Below the pieces are notes generated by a model. The model ran no database searches, had not been told where the DNA came from, and saw nothing but the letters and a program-made list of their open reading frames with translations. A program made the translations under genes and the position numbers. From Escherichia coli (lineage in GTDB: Bacteria > Pseudomonadota > Gammaproteobacteria > Enterobacterales > Enterobacteriaceae): a stretch of DNA of 64,000 nucleotides. Shown piece by piece: positions 19,993 through 51,289 of the stretch (within the stretch, counting starts at the first letter, position 1; each line of letters opens with the position of its first letter). The stretch is taken from the NCBI RefSeq assembly GCF_001677475.2, contig NZ_CP015229.1; one strand, given 5' to 3'.

Positions 19993-20355
19993 ATGGCACA
20001 ACCTGCCGCTATTATTCGTATAAAGAACCTTCGTTTACGTACGTTTATCGGAATTAAGGAAGAAGAAATTAACAACCGTCAGGATATTGTTATCAATGTG
20101 ACGATCCACTACCCCGCCGATAAAGCGCGCACTAGCGAAGATATCAACGATGCGCTGAATTATCGCACTGTAACGAAAAACATTATTCAGCATGTAGAGA
20201 ATAACCGTTTCTCTTTGCTGGAAAAATTAACTCAGGATGTGCTCGATATCGCACGTGAACATCACTGGGTGACGTATGCTGAAGTGGAGATCGATAAACT
20301 GCACGCGCTGCGCTACGCTGATTCGGTATCCATGACCTTAAGCTGGCAGCGTTAA
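19993..20355 (+). CDS. folX: Dihydroneopterin triphosphate 2'-epimerase
   Basis: 120-aa ORF of the FolB/FolX fold ([21 protein letters not shown]). Confidence 0.92.
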
Positions 20356-20375
20356 CCGCCATATCGGGAGGCTGC

Positions 20376-21269
20376 ATGAACATAGTGATCACCGGAGGGA
20401 CGGGATTAATTGGTCGCCATTTGATTCCACGTTTGCTGGAGCTGGGCCATCAAATCACGGTAGTGACGCGTAACCCGCAGAAAGCCAGTTCCGTTCTCGG
20501 CCCTCGGGTGACACTATGGCAAGGGCTTGCCGATCAAAGCAACCTCAACGGCGTTGATGCGGTAATCCACCTGGTCGGAGAACCGATTGCTGATAAACGC
20601 TGGACTCACGAGCAAAAAGAGCGTCTCTGCCAAAGCCGCTGGAATATCACGCAAAAACTGGTCGATTTGATTAATGCCAGCGACACGCCACCGTCGGTAC
20701 TCATTTCCGGCTCAGCAACGGGCTATTATGGCGACTTAGGTGAAGTGGTGGTTACCGAAGAGGAACCGCCGCATAACGAATTTACCCATAAACTCTGCGC
20801 CCGCTGGGAAGAAATTGCCTGCCGGGCGCAAAGTGACAAAACGCGAGTGTGCCTGCTGCGTACCGGCGTAGTGCTGGCACCGGATGGCGGTATTCTCCGT
20901 AAAATGCTGCCGCCGTTTCGTCTTGGCCTGGGCGGGCCGATTGGTTCCGGTCGGCAGTATCTGGCCTGGATTCATATCGATGATATGGTCAACGGCATTC
21001 TCTGGCTGCTCGATAACGAGCTGCGCGGGCCATTTAATATGGTTTCGCCCTACCCGATACGCAATGAACAATTTGCCCATGCGCTCGGTCATGCGCTGCA
21101 TCGCCCGGCCATTTTGCGCGTCCCCGCAACCGCCATTCGGCTGTTAATGGGCGAATCTTCAGTACTGGTATTAGGTGGACAACGCGCGCTGCCTAAACGG
21201 CTGGAAGAAGCGGGTTTTGCGTTTCGTTGGTACGATTTAGAAGAGGCGCTGGCGGATGTCGTTCGCTGA
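20376..21269 (+). CDS. yfcH: NAD-dependent epimerase-family protein (SDR, DUF1731)
   Basis: 297-aa ORF with N-terminal Rossmann motif ITGGTGLIG. Confidence 0.9.
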
Positions 21270-21316
21270 TGTGGTTTACTGCAAACATCCGCCAGTTAAC
21301 TCCCGGTGTTACAGGG

Positions 21317-22219
21317 TTAGTGGCTTTGCGCGATAAGATCGTCTGGTGAAAGTCGGGTCACCATCATAACTAACTCTCGGTCTAAACCTCTATCCAGCAT
21401 CTCCTGAGCAATACGCAGGGCTTCTTCGCGTTTGCCCAGAATTAATCCATCATTCCGCCCTTCTTCACGTAATCTGTCAGCAATAGTCATCAGTTTCTCC
21501 TTTTCTTGTGGTGCGCGTTCCGCTATCTCACCAATAAATGCACGGAAACGCTGGGCATCTCCCGTTTGTAATACGTAATTAAACAGGGCTTTTAGCTGTC
21601 TGTCATTAGTGTTTCCTGTAACTAGCAGCGAAACAATTTGGTCGACTAATCCCAACAGATCGCGCTGACGAATATGTTTCTGAATTAGCTCCAACAGCGC
21701 CATTTTGCGGTGTTGCATAATCTCGTCATCCGGCACCACGGTAATATCCACCAGCGGAAAAGCCGATGAATAAATTTTGCGGGCAATCGCAGGCTCGGCA
21801 AATTCATCAAGCCAGCAGAGTGAATATGGATAAGGGCTTCTGCAGCCATGATAAAACAGCATCGGGATCACCAATGGAAGCTCTTTATAGCCCGCATCAA
21901 GATGGTTTTGCATTGCCGCAATGGAATAACGCATCATGCGAAAAGCCATTAATTCTTCCAGCTTGCTTTGGTGCTCTATCACTACATAAATATAACCCGC
22001 TCCCTCCTGCGTTTTCACAGACCACAAGAGGTCGGAATAATATTGCCGCAGGTCTTCATCAATAAAACTGTTTGGTTCCAGTTTAAGCGTCGTTAAATCA
22101 CACAGTTTGCGCAGCGGCGCGGGAAGATGAATATCAATAAAATCCCGCGCGGTGTCTGGATGGCGTAAAAAAGATTTAAATACCGCATCATGCGGCGTGG
22201 AAGTTGTCGATATTGTCAT
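21317..22219 (-). CDS. rpnB: Rpn-family recombination-promoting nuclease (PD-(D/E)XK, transposase_31-like)
   Basis: 300-aa ORF with conserved Rpn N-terminus ([23 protein letters not shown]) and VIEHQS motif; former yfcI. Confidence 0.85.
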
Positions 22220-22415
22220 GGCGTTCCGTCACCCCTCAAATTTAAGATGACGCGACAATAACCACGATTAACACCCAATGCAGCAGGCAGTTTTTATCTT
22301 TGGACAGCGAATTCAGAAGTATTTTTAGCGGACTGCAACTTTTACATTTCAGCGGAAGCTGACTCGCAAATTCCCCTTGAAAATACTCCGGCAGCGTTAG
22401 CCACCGGAGAGGAAA

Positions 22416-23189
22416 TTATTTCAGCGATCCCTTAAGGAACTGTTGCAGACGAGGGCTTTGCGGGTTGCCAAATAACTGCTCCGGCGCGCCCTCTTCTTCT
22501 ATTTTCCCCTGATGGAGGAAAATGACGTGAGTAGAAACATGGCGAGCAAAGCCCATTTCGTGAGTCACTACCACCATGGTTTTCCCCTCTTCTGCCAGTT
22601 GCTGCATAATACGCAACACTTCGCCTACCAGTTCAGGATCGAGCGCCGAGGTAGGTTCATCAAACAGTAAAACTTCCGGTTCCATCGCCAGCGCCCGCGC
22701 GATAGAAACACGCTGTTGCTGACCGCCGGAAAGATGCACCGGATATTTCCCCTGCGCACGTTCGTCTATCCCGACTTTCGCCAGATACTTCACCGCCCGC
22801 TCGCGCGCTTCTTGCTTGCTCAGGCCCAACACCTGAATCGGCGCTTCCATGACGTTTTCCAGCACCGTCATATGGCTCCAGAGATTGAAGTGCTGGAATA
22901 CCATCGTCAGGCGTGTGCGCAGTAAGCGCAGCTGATTTTTATCGGCGACTTTGAGTTGACCGTCTTTGTCGCGCACCAGATTGATCGTCTGGCCATTGAC
23001 CACGATCGATCCTTCACTCGGTTTTTCGAGGAAGTTAATGCAGCGCAGAAAGGTACTTTTCCCCGATCCCGACGATCCGATGATGCTTATGACATCTCCG
23101 GCATTCGCTTGCAGTGACACCCCTTTCAGCACTTCATGTTCGCCGTAGCGTTTGTGCAAATCGATAACGTTTAATTTATTCTCGGACAT
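22416..23189 (-). CDS. hisP: Histidine/lysine/arginine/ornithine ABC transporter ATP-binding protein
   Basis: 257-aa ORF with Walker A (GSSGSGKST), ABC signature (LSGGQQQR) and Walker B ([11 protein letters not shown]). Confidence 0.95.
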
Positions 23190-23196
23190 CGTATTC

Positions 23197-23913
23197 TCAG
23201 TGCGTTGAAGAAGGTTTCACATGCTGCAACCAGCGTTTTTCCGCTCTGCGAAAGAGGCTGATCAGGACATAAGAGATGATTAAATAGAGCACCGCGGCAA
23301 TGCCGAAGGCGGTAAAAGGTTGATACGTGGCGGCGTTAATATCGCGGGCTATTTTCAGCAGATCCGGCACAGTGGCCGTAAACGCCAGCGCAGTAGAGTG
23401 CAGCATCAGGATCACTTCGTTGCTGTATGCCGGTAACGCAATACGCAGCGCAGAAGGCAAAATAATGCAGCGATACATTTTAAAGGTCGAGAAGCCATAG
23501 GCTCTGGCGGCTTCAATTTCTCCATGCGGCACTGAACGGATTGCCCCGGCAAAAATCTCGGTAGTGTAAGCGCAGGTGTTAAGCGTCAGCGCCAGCACGG
23601 TACAGTTCAGGCCACTGCGGAAAAAGGCGTTAAGGAACTCGGTTCCCTTAACAATCTCCAGCGTGTACATGCCGGAATAGAACACCAGCAACTGAACATA
23701 CAGCGGCGTACCGCGAAAAATATAGGTAAATAACCAGATTGGAAACTGGATGTATTTATTACTTGAGACGCGACCAATCGCCAGAAACAGCGCCAGGACT
23801 CCGCCTATCACTACCGACAAAATCAGCAGCCACAGGGTGATCGCCACACCAGTAAAGCGATAACCGTCGGTCCACAGCAGTGGTTTCCAGTATTCATGTA
23901 AGATTTCGATCAC
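23197..23913 (-). CDS. hisM: Histidine ABC transporter permease
   Basis: 238-aa membrane ORF; 4-bp overlap with hisQ stop. Confidence 0.94.
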
Positions 23914-47880: not shown

Positions 47881-48100
47881 ATGACAACAACCGGATATAG
47901 AATTTGCAGGTCGGATAAGATGCGCCAGCATTGCATCCGACAAGAAATGCCGGATGCGGCGTGAACACCTTATCCAGCCTACGCAAGACTGAATGACAAC
48001 AACCGGATATGGAATTTGTAGGTCGGATAAGATGCGTCAGCATCGCATCCGACAAAAAGTGCCGGATGCGGCGTAAACGCCATATCCTGCCTGGGCGCTA
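47881..48100. repeat. Tandemly duplicated BIME block (2 x about 112 bp, each with an inverted REP pair)
   Basis: Units starting atgacaacaaccggatat at 47881 and 47993 align end to end with a few substitutions; each contains ggtcggataagatgcg...gcatccgac and gccggatgcggcgt... Confidence 0.85.
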
Positions 48101-48964
48101 CAGCATATTCAATACATACTGGAATCGGCAGGTGGAGTCTATGGGCTGCCTGCTACTGGTATCAACACGTACTAACATATCGTGCAGTTGTCGATCGGTA
48201 ATAGGGTGCTGCGTTGGCGCCACAGTCACTTTAGCGTCATCACATCCTTCAGCAGTAAAGGTAATCAACTGATTTACAAAGCGACAATACGCGCCGCGTT
48301 CATCCATTTTACTGCCATCGCAGAGCTGACCATCTTTCATCAGGTAGGTCGATAAGTTTTGTTCAATCACTGACCCTGTTGATTTCAGATTCAAAACCTT
48401 ACTGTGTTCAACACGGCTGTCACTCCAGGAGATATCATAATTTGTTAATGGCTCACCTGGGCAGGTTGTTGTATAGGTTGTAGGCCCCCTATAATATTCA
48501 ACTCTCGGTTGATAATTATAATATACAGTATCAGTACTGTTCGCCGTCATCCCCACCATCCACGGACACGTCTCTGCCGAACCGTTGACCTCTATGGTCA
48601 TGACAACATCGGAGCATCTCCAGTTGAAATTGGGATCAATCTCTTTAACACCCGGACAATGGGAATCTTGTGTATAATCGCTCGAGCGGACTGTGATTTT
48701 GGGGGCTGGAATATTTCCCGGCCCGGTCCATGAATGATTAGGAAGATCCCCATACTTGACGCCATGGTCGGTATTTTGATAGTACACCCCATGATAAACC
48801 CCATTGGTAGTGAGTAAATCAAGGTAGAATTGAAGCGTTGCATTTCCGGCAATCGTACCATAGTAGACTGTCACATTATTATAGACTGCCCCCAGTTTCG
48901 CCTGAGCTCCCTGGCTAAAGAACAGCACCAGCATGGCGCAAAGCAGTAATCGTATTTTTTTCAT
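48098..48964 (-). CDS. yfcO: Fimbrial-operon-associated exported protein (DUF2544)
   Basis: ORF with signal peptide MKKIRLLLCAMLVLFFSQGAQA; start chosen at 48962-48964 (ORF track allows 48979). Confidence 0.78.
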   Translation of the reverse strand: MKKIRLLLCAMLVLFFSQGAQAKLGAVYNNVTVYYGTIAGNATLQFYLDLLTTNGVYHGVYYQNTDHGVKYGDLPNHSWTGPGNIPAPKITVRSSDYTQDSHCPGVKEIDPNFNWRCSDVVMTIEVNGSAETCPWMVGMTANSTDTVYYNYQPRVEYYRGPTTYTTTCPGEPLTNYDISWSDSRVEHSKVLNLKSTGSVIEQNLSTYLMKDGQLCDGSKMDERGAYCRFVNQLITFTAEGCDDAKVTVAPTQHPITDRQLHDMLVRVDTSSRQPIDSTCRFQYVLNML

Positions 48965-48965
48965 C

Positions 48966-49505
48966 TTATATATACTCAAAGGTTGCCGTCAGGTTGGCGG
49001 TAAAATCACCGAGCGTGACATCGCGACCGCTTTTCGCCTGCAGCCAGGCCCTGAAATGAATATCATTACTTCCATCGCTGAGCGTAAATTTCGCCCCTGT
49101 CGGGTTGTTAATTGCCACCCGCACACCATCGATCGTTTCCATCCCAATTCCGACGCCCTGAGCGGTTGAAGTGGTATCCAGCGCGAGGAAACCCGGCTGT
49201 TCGCTGTCTTCCGTACCGGTAAGGGTCACCTGCACCTGGTAACTCGCCGGCCCCTTGCAATCTTTTAGCTTAAACACCACCGGAACGTGCGGGGATTCCC
49301 CTGCGACCATAAGATCCTGACGACTGATGGCAGGAAAATGCACTTCTGCCAGATTTCCGCCATCAACCACCAGCGTGCAGGAACGGCTTAATAAGTTGCC
49401 TGAAAAATGCAGGTTGTTATCCACGGCCAGGGCACAAGTGCCACCGGTCAACAGCAGCCCCGCTAACAGCGCGTAGCCGAACGAATAAATGCGTCCTGTC
49501 TTCAT
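48966..49505 (-). CDS. yfcP: Fimbrial-like subunit
   Basis: 179-aa ORF with signal peptide and fimbrial subunit Cys pair. Confidence 0.85.
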   Translation of the reverse strand: MKTGRIYSFGYALLAGLLLTGGTCALAVDNNLHFSGNLLSRSCTLVVDGGNLAEVHFPAISRQDLMVAGESPHVPVVFKLKDCKGPASYQVQVTLTGTEDSEQPGFLALDTTSTAQGVGIGMETIDGVRVAINNPTGAKFTLSDGSNDIHFRAWLQAKSGRDVTLGDFTANLTATFEYI

Positions 49506-49990
49506 TGATAATCCACCCGTAATGTTGCATAGGCCGAAAACGTGGTATCACTCAACACCGCATCAGCCGATTTCACCGGCACAGCTTCCAGCTTCGGCTT
49601 TTGCGTAAAATCGGTGGCGTTAATGGCAAGCGGCGTATTCAGCTTAAAACGCTGACCATCGTGCCGAAGCTCAATACCAAAACCGGGAACATCTGTTTCG
49701 ATAGCCGAGTCGTTATACGTGGTCTGCGTACCCGTCCATGTGAGCGTCATAATCCAGTCGGGCTCGCGTACTGCGGAGTCACAGCTCAGGTCATAGTTCA
49801 CTTCCCTGCGACCATAATCCCCGTTGATGCTGTCGATGATAAGATCGCGAAATTCCACTTCAATGGTCTTTCCCTCGCTAATGGTACAGGCTGGAGGTGA
49901 CACCAGCGTACCGTGAAAGGTGATGTCTTCATTTGCTGCCAGAGCCACGCCGCCACAGATGCAGAGTAAAAGTAATGAGAGTTTTTTCAC
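49502..49990 (-). CDS. yfcQ: Fimbrial-like subunit
   Basis: 162-aa ORF with signal peptide; 4-bp overlap with yfcP. Confidence 0.85.
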   Translation of the reverse strand: MKKLSLLLLCICGGVALAANEDITFHGTLVSPPACTISEGKTIEVEFRDLIIDSINGDYGRREVNYDLSCDSAVREPDWIMTLTWTGTQTTYNDSAIETDVPGFGIELRHDGQRFKLNTPLAINATDFTQKPKLEAVPVKSADAVLSDTTFSAYATLRVDYQ

Positions 49991-50502
49991 TGGTAATCCA
50001 CCACCATCGTCATACTGGCGTTAAATTCCGCTGGCGTAAGCTGCACTCCGCTCTGTTTTACCGGCACCGCTTTGAGACTGGGCAACTGGTTAACATTGAA
50101 ATCAGACCAGTTACCTTCACCCACTTTAAACAGGGTGTTATCGGCACCGTTTTCAATGCGGATACCCAGGCCTGAAATTTGCGTCGCAATGACCGTTTCC
50201 CCGTTAATCACGGTGGTGGAGCCTTTAAGCTGCATCCGCAGATCATCAACACCTGATGCCTTGTTACCGCAGTTCAGGGTATAAAGCGCCCCCGTCGTAC
50301 GGTAATTTGTGCCATTGATTTTGCTAATGTACACATTGCCAAATTCAACATTGCTCCCCTTCACGGAACAGGGCGGTGGCCCATCCACCAGAACGCGCAA
50401 CGTTAATAACACCGGTTTACTTTCTCCCGCGACGGCCATGTTGCCCGTCAGCCAGCCGCTCAGGAGAAAAATGCCCGTTCCCACCAGAAACGTGTATTTC
50501 AT
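49987..50502 (-). CDS. yfcR: Fimbrial-like subunit
   Basis: 171-aa ORF with signal peptide; 4-bp overlap with yfcQ. Confidence 0.85.
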   Translation of the reverse strand: MKYTFLVGTGIFLLSGWLTGNMAVAGESKPVLLTLRVLVDGPPPCSVKGSNVEFGNVYISKINGTNYRTTGALYTLNCGNKASGVDDLRMQLKGSTTVINGETVIATQISGLGIRIENGADNTLFKVGEGNWSDFNVNQLPSLKAVPVKQSGVQLTPAEFNASMTMVVDYQ

Positions 50503-50517
50503 AAGACTCTCCCGGCA

Positions 50518-51270
50518 TCAGCCTTTGCGGCTCTGCTCTGCATCCACCTGGCAACTATTGCCGTTGCATTTAAAGATCAGCGAAAGTCGCGCGCCGTAGT
50601 CGTTGACGTAAGTCAGCACCGGCACACTGTCCATCTTCACATTCAGCGGTGCGGATGTTTTCGGCGGCATTACCAGCGGCGTAAATCCGGCTGCCGGATT
50701 ACCATTTTTCTGGGTACTGGCGTTGCTGAGGATCACGTAATACGGCGTTGGGTTATTAACGGTGAAGGCCTGCCCATTGCGGGTTAAAGTCACCTTGTGC
50801 TGCCACGGATCTCTCATGTTGATTTCTGCCAGCGCCTTCGGTCGCCAGAACAGTTTGATACGCGTTTGCAGAGCAATTTGCAGGGTGTTCGGTTTGTTCG
50901 ATTTTGGCGGGATTTCACGCACGTTAAAGTAGAACATGCTCTCACGATCGGCAGGTAACTTGCTGATATCCGGCATTCCCTGGACTTTTACCTGACCATT
51001 CATCATCGCATCAATGCGCTGTACCGGCGGCAGAACCGTCAATGGCGAACTGATTTTGTTGCCCTTTTCGTCTTCTATCCAGCTTTGCGCCAGATATGGC
51101 AGCTTAGGGTCGTTATTGCGCAACGTGACGCTGATGGATTTGTCACTTTCTTTGAAGATCAGGCGGGTGCGGTCGGGCGTTACCGATGCGTGGGTTGTAA
51201 AACTGGCGGCGGTCACCAGCAGCGCCAGCGCCGGGGCAACCATTTTTGCGGTATTAGTCTGTGTATACAT
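50518..51270 (-). CDS. yfcS: Periplasmic fimbrial chaperone (PapD-like)
   Basis: 250-aa ORF with signal peptide and PapD-family core. Confidence 0.9.
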   Translation of the reverse strand: MYTQTNTAKMVAPALALLVTAASFTTHASVTPDRTRLIFKESDKSISVTLRNNDPKLPYLAQSWIEDEKGNKISSPLTVLPPVQRIDAMMNGQVKVQGMPDISKLPADRESMFYFNVREIPPKSNKPNTLQIALQTRIKLFWRPKALAEINMRDPWQHKVTLTRNGQAFTVNNPTPYYVILSNASTQKNGNPAAGFTPLVMPPKTSAPLNVKMDSVPVLTYVNDYGARLSLIFKCNGNSCQVDAEQSRKG

Positions 51271-51289
51271 GGATCATTCCTTAATCACG

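Follow-up and report, generated by a model that had tools for sequence, protein, structure and literature searches.

The rpnB locus and its product

We examined a 64,000-nucleotide stretch of DNA from Escherichia coli (assembly GCF_001677475.2, contig NZ_CP015229.1; hereafter the window), focusing on the gene rpnB, which an earlier note on this sequence had described as a domesticated transposase-like nuclease gene encoding 300 amino acids. The coding sequence lies at 21317..22219 on the minus strand, exactly where the note had placed it, and forms an intact open reading frame (ORF) of 300 codons with an ATG start, encoding the predicted nuclease and toxin RpnB_L. The assignment rested on the ORF, on the family models PF04754 and TIGR01784, and on an identical protein on record (ANO90096.1, 'recombination-promoting nuclease RpnB [Escherichia coli]', 45 contigs). 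Residues 8-209 matched Pfam PF04754 (Transposase_31, YhgA-like) with E=8.3e-91 and 303.5 bits against a cut-off of 21, and the NCBIfam model TIGR01784 for the Rpn family scored 189 bits against a cut-off of 52.1, so that membership in the Rpn (YhgA-like) PD-(D/E)XK family, as the note had claimed, is confirmed. With the RpnA equivalog NF007361 the protein reached 465 bits, below the cut-off of 583, and it is therefore a paralogue of RpnA and not RpnA itself.

The plus-strand genes yfcG, folX and yfcH lie on one side of rpnB and the minus-strand genes hisP, hisM and hisQ on the other, a gene order shared with a K-12-like genome. The yfcH / rpnB / hisP site, an amino acid identity of 96.3% to the K-12-like RpnB and the RefSeq name rpnB in the genomes listed identified the product as the RpnB orthologue. 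Across 20300-23300, the highest identity of the window was 98.7% among 5,426 complete E. coli genomes, the set used for all genome surveys reported here; K-12-like genomes reached 97.8% over the same interval and encode an RpnB of 296 amino acids. The gene thus occupies the K-12 position, as the note had stated, although the window itself is not K-12. The locus is the known gene rpnB, usual in E. coli apart from one pandemic lineage that has deleted it, and nothing in it departs from the published description.

The Transposase_31 / YhgA-like domain (residues 8-209; 21593..22198, minus strand) includes the PD-(D/E)XK core at roughly residues 8-125, and the window protein has the alpha-beta-beta-beta-alpha-beta arrangement of the PD-(D/E)XK fold. 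The catalytic codons D63 (22033-22031), E82 (21976-21974) and Q84 (21970-21968) span 21968..22033 on the minus strand, and further key codons on that strand specify D11 (22189-22187), R94 (21940-21938) and D165 in the PDDE motif (21727-21725). All six residues, including Q84, where Q replaces K, were found in the window protein at RpnA numbering, and the key residues were invariant or at least 90% conserved among 46 homologues. Previous mutagenesis of RpnA showed that D11A, D63A, E82A and Q84K abolished all three phenotypes, that Q84A and R94A abolished recombination and kept toxicity, and that D165A was hyperactive in vitro; Mg-dependent DNA endonuclease activity in vitro was reported for RpnA only (PMC5350276). 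By homology to RpnA, RpnB_L would be a PD-(D/E)XK DNA endonuclease. Codon 87 (21959-21961), three residues past Q84, specifies Leu in the window allele and Pro or Ala in all other alleles examined; because the exact protein occurs on 45 contigs, L87 is not a sequencing error.

The low-rmsd (root-mean-square deviation) structural neighbours nearest to the modelled N-terminal domain were the PD-(D/E)XK defence nucleases Hachiman HamA, Shedu SduA and McrC (6.6, 6.4 and 5.8, respectively, in the structure-match table, which also contained NucS at 7.3 and N.BspD6I at 7.0). These three defence proteins resemble RpnB_L as PD-(D/E)XK nucleases that are restrained until infection, but they share only 6-15% sequence identity with it, act with other partner proteins and have no nested antitoxin. 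The top matches of a sequence search against the PDB, designer pentatricopeptide proteins with E down to 4e-11, were rejected as a repeat artefact, because each sums about 10 repeats (single E >80) on one 30-residue helix-turn-helix stretch.

A nested reading frame for a proposed antitoxin

Within rpnB, a second ORF starts in frame at M244 (ATG at 21490-21488) and runs to the shared stop codon (21317..21490, minus strand); this frame, rpnB_S, would encode a proposed antitoxin of 57 amino acids. A Shine-Dalgarno sequence, AAGGAG (21497..21502, minus strand), stands 6 nt before the internal ATG, so that the C-terminal domain is headed by its own start codon with a ribosome-binding site (AAGGAG-N6-ATG at codon 244). 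The earlier note had held that the gene lacks partner genes; this does not stand, as the partner is nested inside the gene itself. The 57-amino-acid ORF was without annotation in any record that we examined.

Sequence conservation was in line with an internal start. M244 was invariant among 46 family members, and the 24-nt block CCACAAGAAAAGGAGAAACTGATG at the internal start was identical in 10 Escherichia alleles, with synonymous divergence of up to 0.46 elsewhere. In a comparison of 9 alleles, no stretch in the first 756 nt of rpnB stayed invariant for longer than the 29-nt run that contains this block. The run is consistent with constraint, yet by our estimate such a run is expected about once per gene by chance and is no independent proof. 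Counting from M244 in the K-12 allele led exactly to D29 of RpnB_S, the residue that was mutated to a stop codon in previous work (PMC10400941), and this match indicates that the nested ORF begins at the published RpnB_S start. Residues 244-299 aligned weakly (E=0.087) to the solved structure of RpnA_S (PDB 7th0_A). The model PF27070 (HTH_Rpn_C) had precomputed matches in close relatives, and the Pfam copy searched with the window protein was one without PF27070. In the AlphaFold2 (AF2) model, helices in the C-terminal part spanned residues 237-252, 260-276, 281-288 and 292-296, with low confidence.

The function of both products is known from K-12. Kingston et al. (2017), who named RpnA-E, reported a 19-fold increase of RecA-independent recombination in a conjugal assay when RpnB was overexpressed, together with a 98.7% drop in the viability of recA-deficient recipients and an early SOS response, and found that deletion of rpnA-D left basal RecA-independent recombination unaltered (PMC5350276). 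Overexpressed K-12 RpnB_L causes DNA damage, SOS induction and growth inhibition. Zhong et al. (2023, PNAS) found internal translation and transcription starts in all five K-12 rpn genes, detected both RpnB_L and RpnB_S from SPA-tagged chromosomal genes, and observed in growth curves that K-12 RpnB_L without RpnB_S inhibits growth more than the native gene (PMC10400941). In the same study, SOS induction by RpnB, followed with a dinD-lacZ reporter, was blocked by RpnB_S and not by RpnA_S, and a stop codon at D29 of RpnB_S abolished the block (PMC10400941).

A hypervariable helix and uneven selection

Helix 1 of the C-terminal domain carries a hypervariable segment at codons 255-261 (RNDGLIL; 21437..21457, minus strand) that is 12 nt (4 amino acids) longer than in K-12. 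From residue 12 of RpnB_S, the K-12 sequence REEG-AMQG-KHEE is both replaced and lengthened in the window allele, and an 11-nt direct repeat brackets the segment (21421-21431 and 21460-21470). Family-wide, the same spot held between 0 and about 8 additional four-residue units, producing a gap as wide as about 32 columns in the alignment and protein lengths of 296, 300, 304 and so on up to 320 amino acids. RpnS length is known to vary by four-residue repeats starting 8-20 residues past the start Met (PMC10400941), and we observed variation by four-residue units in this same interval past the internal Met. The K-12 RpnB (YfcI) is accordingly alike in site, in amino acid sequence, in catalytic residues and in the internal Shine-Dalgarno sequence and ATG at codon 244, but differs in length (296 against 300 amino acids for the full protein, 53 against 57 for RpnB_S), in its AMQGKH segment and in having P87 in place of L87.

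We then counted the forms. The long block (21420-21475) was present in about 1,224 of the 5,426 genomes, about a quarter of the rpnB carriers, and most of the remaining carriers had the K-12-length form (roughly 3,500 genomes with a form other than the long one). Outside E. coli, the long form was found in E. whittamii, E. marmotae and Escherichia sp. MOD1-EC7003, and the short form in E. albertii, E. fergusonii and Escherichia sp. E1V33. This distribution across species fits either an old maintained polymorphism or interspecies exchange. Variation was not confined to helix 1: in alleles of the B2 group such as that of SF-166, a large part of helices 2-3 is replaced (EMMEKGFDHEVILTLT).

The ratio of nonsynonymous to synonymous divergence (dN/dS) was estimated by pairwise Nei-Gojobori comparison of the window allele with 9 other alleles from Escherichia and, in addition, of a K-12-like allele with that of SF-166. 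It was 0.01-0.07 for codons 1-243 and 0.14-0.70 from codon 244 to the end (0 for the pair of window and strain C41). The strong conservation of the nuclease part marks rpnB as a working gene and not a remnant, and the antitoxin and dimerisation part evolves several-fold faster than the nuclease part. The length of the hypervariable helix 1 probably sets the pairing between RpnB_S and RpnB_L. When one repeat was added to RpnC_S or RpnC_LS, neutralisation was lost unless both partners carried it (PMC10400941); by this precedent the two RpnB forms may not cross-protect.

Two sets of unusual variants were also noted. Five RpnB variants from Shigella (including Shigella flexneri) and E. coli have lost 12-51 internal residues, in frame, from the nuclease or linker region and keep the RpnB_S part whole; these may be cases in which the toxin was inactivated and the antitoxin kept. 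In five metagenome-derived proteins, the N-terminal 90-170 residues of a more divergent Rpn, possibly another paralogue, are fused to the rest of RpnB; these could be assembly chimeras or products of genuine recombination between rpn paralogues.

Presence, loss and disruption among E. coli genomes

The segment 21296-22309 (1,014 bp), within which rpnB lies, was present in 4,755 of the 5,426 genomes, always on the chromosome and normally in a single copy. The copies occupied one place per genome (two in a few genomes, where the gene is split) and had constant neighbours, yfcH and hisP. An empty junction stood in place of rpnB in 670 genomes, in which 21296..22309 (no strand assigned) is swapped for a 27-bp filler; the junctions were defined against the filled B2 allele of SF-166. 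All sampled copies of the empty junction had the same sequence (100% identity); across the full set of 670, identity over 97 bp was at least 99% in 572. Sequence type 131 (ST131) strains appear among the 60 empty genomes listed: EC958, JJ1886, JJ1887, SE15, uk_P46212, MNCRE44 and further strains that carry the label O25b:H4-ST131. The left breakpoint, 21295/21296, coincides with the 3′ foot of a hairpin across the yfcH stop codon (21249..21295, plus strand; arms 21249-21259 and 21285-21295 pairing at 11/11 positions), and the right junction precedes 22310. SF-166, a B2 genome in which rpnB is present, has a hisP-side flank identical to that of the empty allele.

The filler, CGGAAACGCTGATGAATAAATATAGAT (27 bp; 2497-2523 in E. 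coli AVS0947), could be tiled by three rpnB fragments of 11, 11 and 9 nt from 21543, 21765 and 21986, with strand and order preserved and about 222 bp apart in the intact gene. Only 2 of 2,000 shuffled sequences were matched as well. As read from these matches, the filler suggests a deletion scar left by template switching. Independently of the filler, the presence of rpnB at this site in other Escherichia (see below) means that its absence is a loss in one lineage and not the result of transposition. The earlier note had named strain-variable presence as a sign of mobility; presence does vary among strains, but the variation traces to one deletion scar and not to movement of the gene.

At least 13 further genomes had a disrupted rpnB (<80% in one piece). 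In strain SE11, a Mu-like prophage that carries Com, Gin-type recombinase and tail-fibre genes splits rpnB at codon 119 (after the equivalent of 21865; SE11 7567 onward) and leaves a C-terminal pseudogene. The prophage terminates in TGAAGCGGCGCACGAAAAACGCG, which we take to be a Mu end. In strain 3985, rpnB is broken at another point than in SE11.

Origin of rpnB at the yfcH-hisP gap

We extended the comparison to other species and genera. rpnB was found between yfcH and hisP in the E. coli E69 lineage, Escherichia sp. MOD1-EC7003, E. whittamii and Escherichia sp. E1V33; in E. albertii it adjoins hisP at a contig end, and RpnB proteins are on record from E. marmotae and E. fergusonii. The gap is empty in Salmonella enterica, with a 51-bp spacer; in Citrobacter koseri and C. 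freundii it is occupied by a GNAT acetyltransferase, and in Klebsiella by two unknown genes together with a GNAT acetyltransferase. The locus comparison across Enterobacteriaceae that the note had proposed therefore places rpnB at this site in Escherichia and not in Salmonella, Citrobacter or Klebsiella, and the gap is a variable slot between genera. The closest homologues from outside Escherichia (66-70% identity) were considered as site orthologues and rejected, as they lie at other loci: phr / rpn / dtpD in Citrobacter and feoC / rpn / bioH, the rpnA site, in Salmonella.

Base composition also sets the gene apart from its flanks. The GC content was 46.0% for rpnB and 46.3% for the segment 21296-22309, whereas the 10 kb to its left and right had about 52%; GC at third codon positions (GC3) was 44.9% in rpnB, 56-60% in yfcH, hisP and hisM, and 48% in folX. 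On the hisP side, GCGGAAGCTGACTCGCAAATTCCC (22352..22375, plus strand) is, tentatively, a possible relic of an ancestral yfcH 3′ end: it matched the Salmonella yfcH 3′ end plus 5 bases past the stop codon (TTCCC) with a score of 26, which 0 of 1,000 shuffles reached. The same spacer was also considered as a duplicate of the 3′ end of E. coli's own yfcH and rejected as not significant, since 570 of 1,000 shuffles scored equally. The putative relic raises the tentative possibility that the incoming rpnB DNA landed at the extreme end of yfcH. Taken together, the contents of the gap in other genera, the location of homologues elsewhere, the low GC content and the tentative yfcH relic indicate one horizontal acquisition at the yfcH-hisP gap before the sampled Escherichia diverged, followed by vertical descent. 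This evidence for a single old entry of rpnB is a small addition and leaves the understanding of the system unchanged.

Flanking signals, repeats and the rest of the window

The his transport operon is set apart from rpnB by the intrinsic terminator of hisP (22386..22409, minus strand), whose 10-pair stem contains 7 GC pairs and runs into TATTTTCAAG. Because hisP ends upstream with its own terminator, the rpnB_L promoter must be located in the rpnB 5′ region (22220..22385, minus strand). A consensus sigma-70 scan of the minus strand found no convincing site ahead of either rpnB or the internal start; the sole match on that strand (22018-21989) lies about 500 nt upstream of the internal ATG. 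No Rfam family matched 21200-22450 at permissive thresholds.

A repeat search across 21100-22500 yielded no inverted or direct repeat bracketing the gene, only short pairs of low identity. The only strong inverted repeat near rpnB was the 11-bp hairpin at the yfcH 3′ end described above. An insertion sequence (IS)-like structure was rejected, as no repeats occur at the ends of the ORF or of 21296-22309. The junctions of the empty allele were likewise without duplication, and the absence of terminal inverted repeats and target-site duplication asserted in the note was upheld by both observations.

The window was collinear with the genome of E. coli C41 from nuoF to mlaA. C41 carries IS621 (IS110-like) between mnmC and yfcL (C41 10244-11520), and the window lacks it at the corresponding point, 42556/42557; IS621 was the only transposase annotated in the corresponding C41 stretch. 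No second Rpn copy was detected in the window by tblastn. At 47884-55232, the window contains a divergent allele of the yfc chaperone-usher fimbrial operon, with about 80% identity to C41 or unalignable, between flanks of 95-98% identity; the Pfam matches of the products from 47.9-55.2 kb were Fimbrial, PapD, Usher and DUF2544. As far as C41 collinearity, tblastn and the fimbrial stretch can tell, rpnB is the only mobile-element-related coding sequence in the window, as had been proposed.

Interpretation

We consider it likely that rpnB is a chromosomal, vertically inherited gene-within-gene toxin-antitoxin unit and not a transposase or mobile element. Anatomy, conservation, selection and distribution were computed here, and toxicity, expression of the short product and neutralisation come from the K-12 literature. 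RpnB_S, inferred to start at the AAGGAG-N6-ATG of codon 244 and to consist of the C-terminal helical domain only, would bind the matching domain of RpnB_L and keep the nuclease inactive. Release of the nuclease would then act in phage defence, the most likely role by analogy with a plasmid paralogue, and the long allele would be expected to behave like the K-12 allele. RpnA (YhgA), the paralogue characterised by biochemistry and, through the crystal structure of RpnA_S (7TH0), by structure, has the same domain layout, the same catalytic numbering and an internal translation initiation site (iTIS) at M244; it differs in its feoC / rpnA / bioH locus, as seen in Salmonella, and in that RpnA_S does not neutralise RpnB. 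The plasmid paralogue, RpnP2 from ECOR13, is likewise an Rpn family member with its S frame nested in the L gene, but it is carried on a plasmid and has been demonstrated directly to protect against T-even phages (PMC10400941), whereas protection by chromosomal RpnB is proposed by analogy.

Several observations weigh against this interpretation. The C-terminal part has only weak similarity to the solved RpnA_S and a poor AF2 model, and the functions of the 300-amino-acid allele are extrapolated from a K-12 allele that is 96% identical and one helix unit shorter. The residue L87, close to catalytic Q84, stands alone among the alleles examined. Phage protection is known for RpnP2 only, and housekeeping roles were allowed for by the same authors (PMC10400941); the neighbourhood of rpnB consists of housekeeping genes and is not a defence island. 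The consensus promoter scan placed no promoter for either transcript. The lineage that contains ST131 thrives without rpnB. PADLOC v2.0.0 (2023 library) matched no model, a null result that says nothing either way because the library has no model matching this protein.

Among the alternatives, the one that survives best, though we regard it as unlikely, holds that rpnB is a domesticated transposase-like nuclease that promotes RecA-independent recombination and gene acquisition. The Pfam name 'putative transposase' and the 19-fold rise in recombination with overexpressed RpnB speak for it, and Zhong et al. left housekeeping roles possible and suggested RpnL as a possible driver of repeat expansion (PMC10400941). 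The recombination role named in the earlier note is thus borne out on overexpression, but the deletion of rpnA-D had no basal effect (PMC5350276), and the rise required overexpression of a toxic nuclease from constructs that were unknowingly making the antitoxin as well. The term 'domesticated transposase' is itself an outdated label derived from the Pfam name: rpn genes lack inverted repeats and target duplications, no autonomous transposase of this fold is known, and a transposase role has been judged very unlikely (PMC10400941). A role in recombination also leaves the invariant internal start and the fast-evolving C-terminal domain unexplained.

It is very unlikely, in our view, that rpnB is a selfish addiction module or a decaying remnant without benefit to the host. 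A toxin-antitoxin layout can persist through addiction alone, the gene was lost in the ST131-containing lineage, and disrupted copies (at least 13, such as that with the SE11 Mu-like prophage) and in-frame deleted Shigella variants exist. Against this, purifying selection on the nuclease domain is strong in comparisons between species, there is nothing to which a lone chromosomal copy could be addicted, and the diversifying C-terminal domain together with the cross-species long and short forms suggests selection from outside.

Least probable of all, to the point that we set it aside, is an IS-like mobile element that is active or was recently so and hence strain-variable: the 670 genomes without rpnB, its low GC and GC3 relative to the flanks, its absence from the site in other genera and the possible short duplicate of the yfcH 3′ end on the far side would suit such an element, but rpnB occurs in single copy, with yfcH and hisP as its invariable neighbours and no plasmid-borne cases, has no detectable terminal inverted repeats or target duplication, is missing from all 670 empty sites through one junction with an rpnB-like 27-bp filler, is absent from named ST131 strains but present in B2 genomes whose hisP-side flank is identical, and shares its site among five Escherichia lineages with a dN/dS of 0.01-0.07 that reflects long vertical maintenance. 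Compared with insertion sequences and with TnsA, the PD-(D/E)XK transposase subunit of Tn7, rpnB has in common the fold, the 'putative transposase / ISNCY' label, patchy occurrence among taxa and a lower GC content, but it differs in having no terminal inverted repeats, target-site duplication or partner transposition proteins and in being a single copy at a fixed site. The earlier conclusion that rpnB is not an active insertion can accordingly be retained, on the grounds of single copy, fixed site, missing IS ends and one shared scar.

For the toxin-antitoxin unit, the helix-length alleles point to a further idea, which we hold to be rather unlikely: the long RpnB_S helix and the short one (REEG-AMQG) would be two mutually non-neutralising specificity classes, kept by phage-driven balancing selection in E. 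coli and other Escherichia, and the clean loss of the unit at the root of the ST131-containing lineage would have altered phage susceptibility or tolerance of incoming DNA. The frequencies of helix-length alleles in E. coli are a small addition of this study that could guide cross-neutralisation or phage-panel work, as are the exact ends and scar of the deletion in 670 genomes. For genome annotation, what matters is that the label 'putative transposase' conceals a two-product locus.

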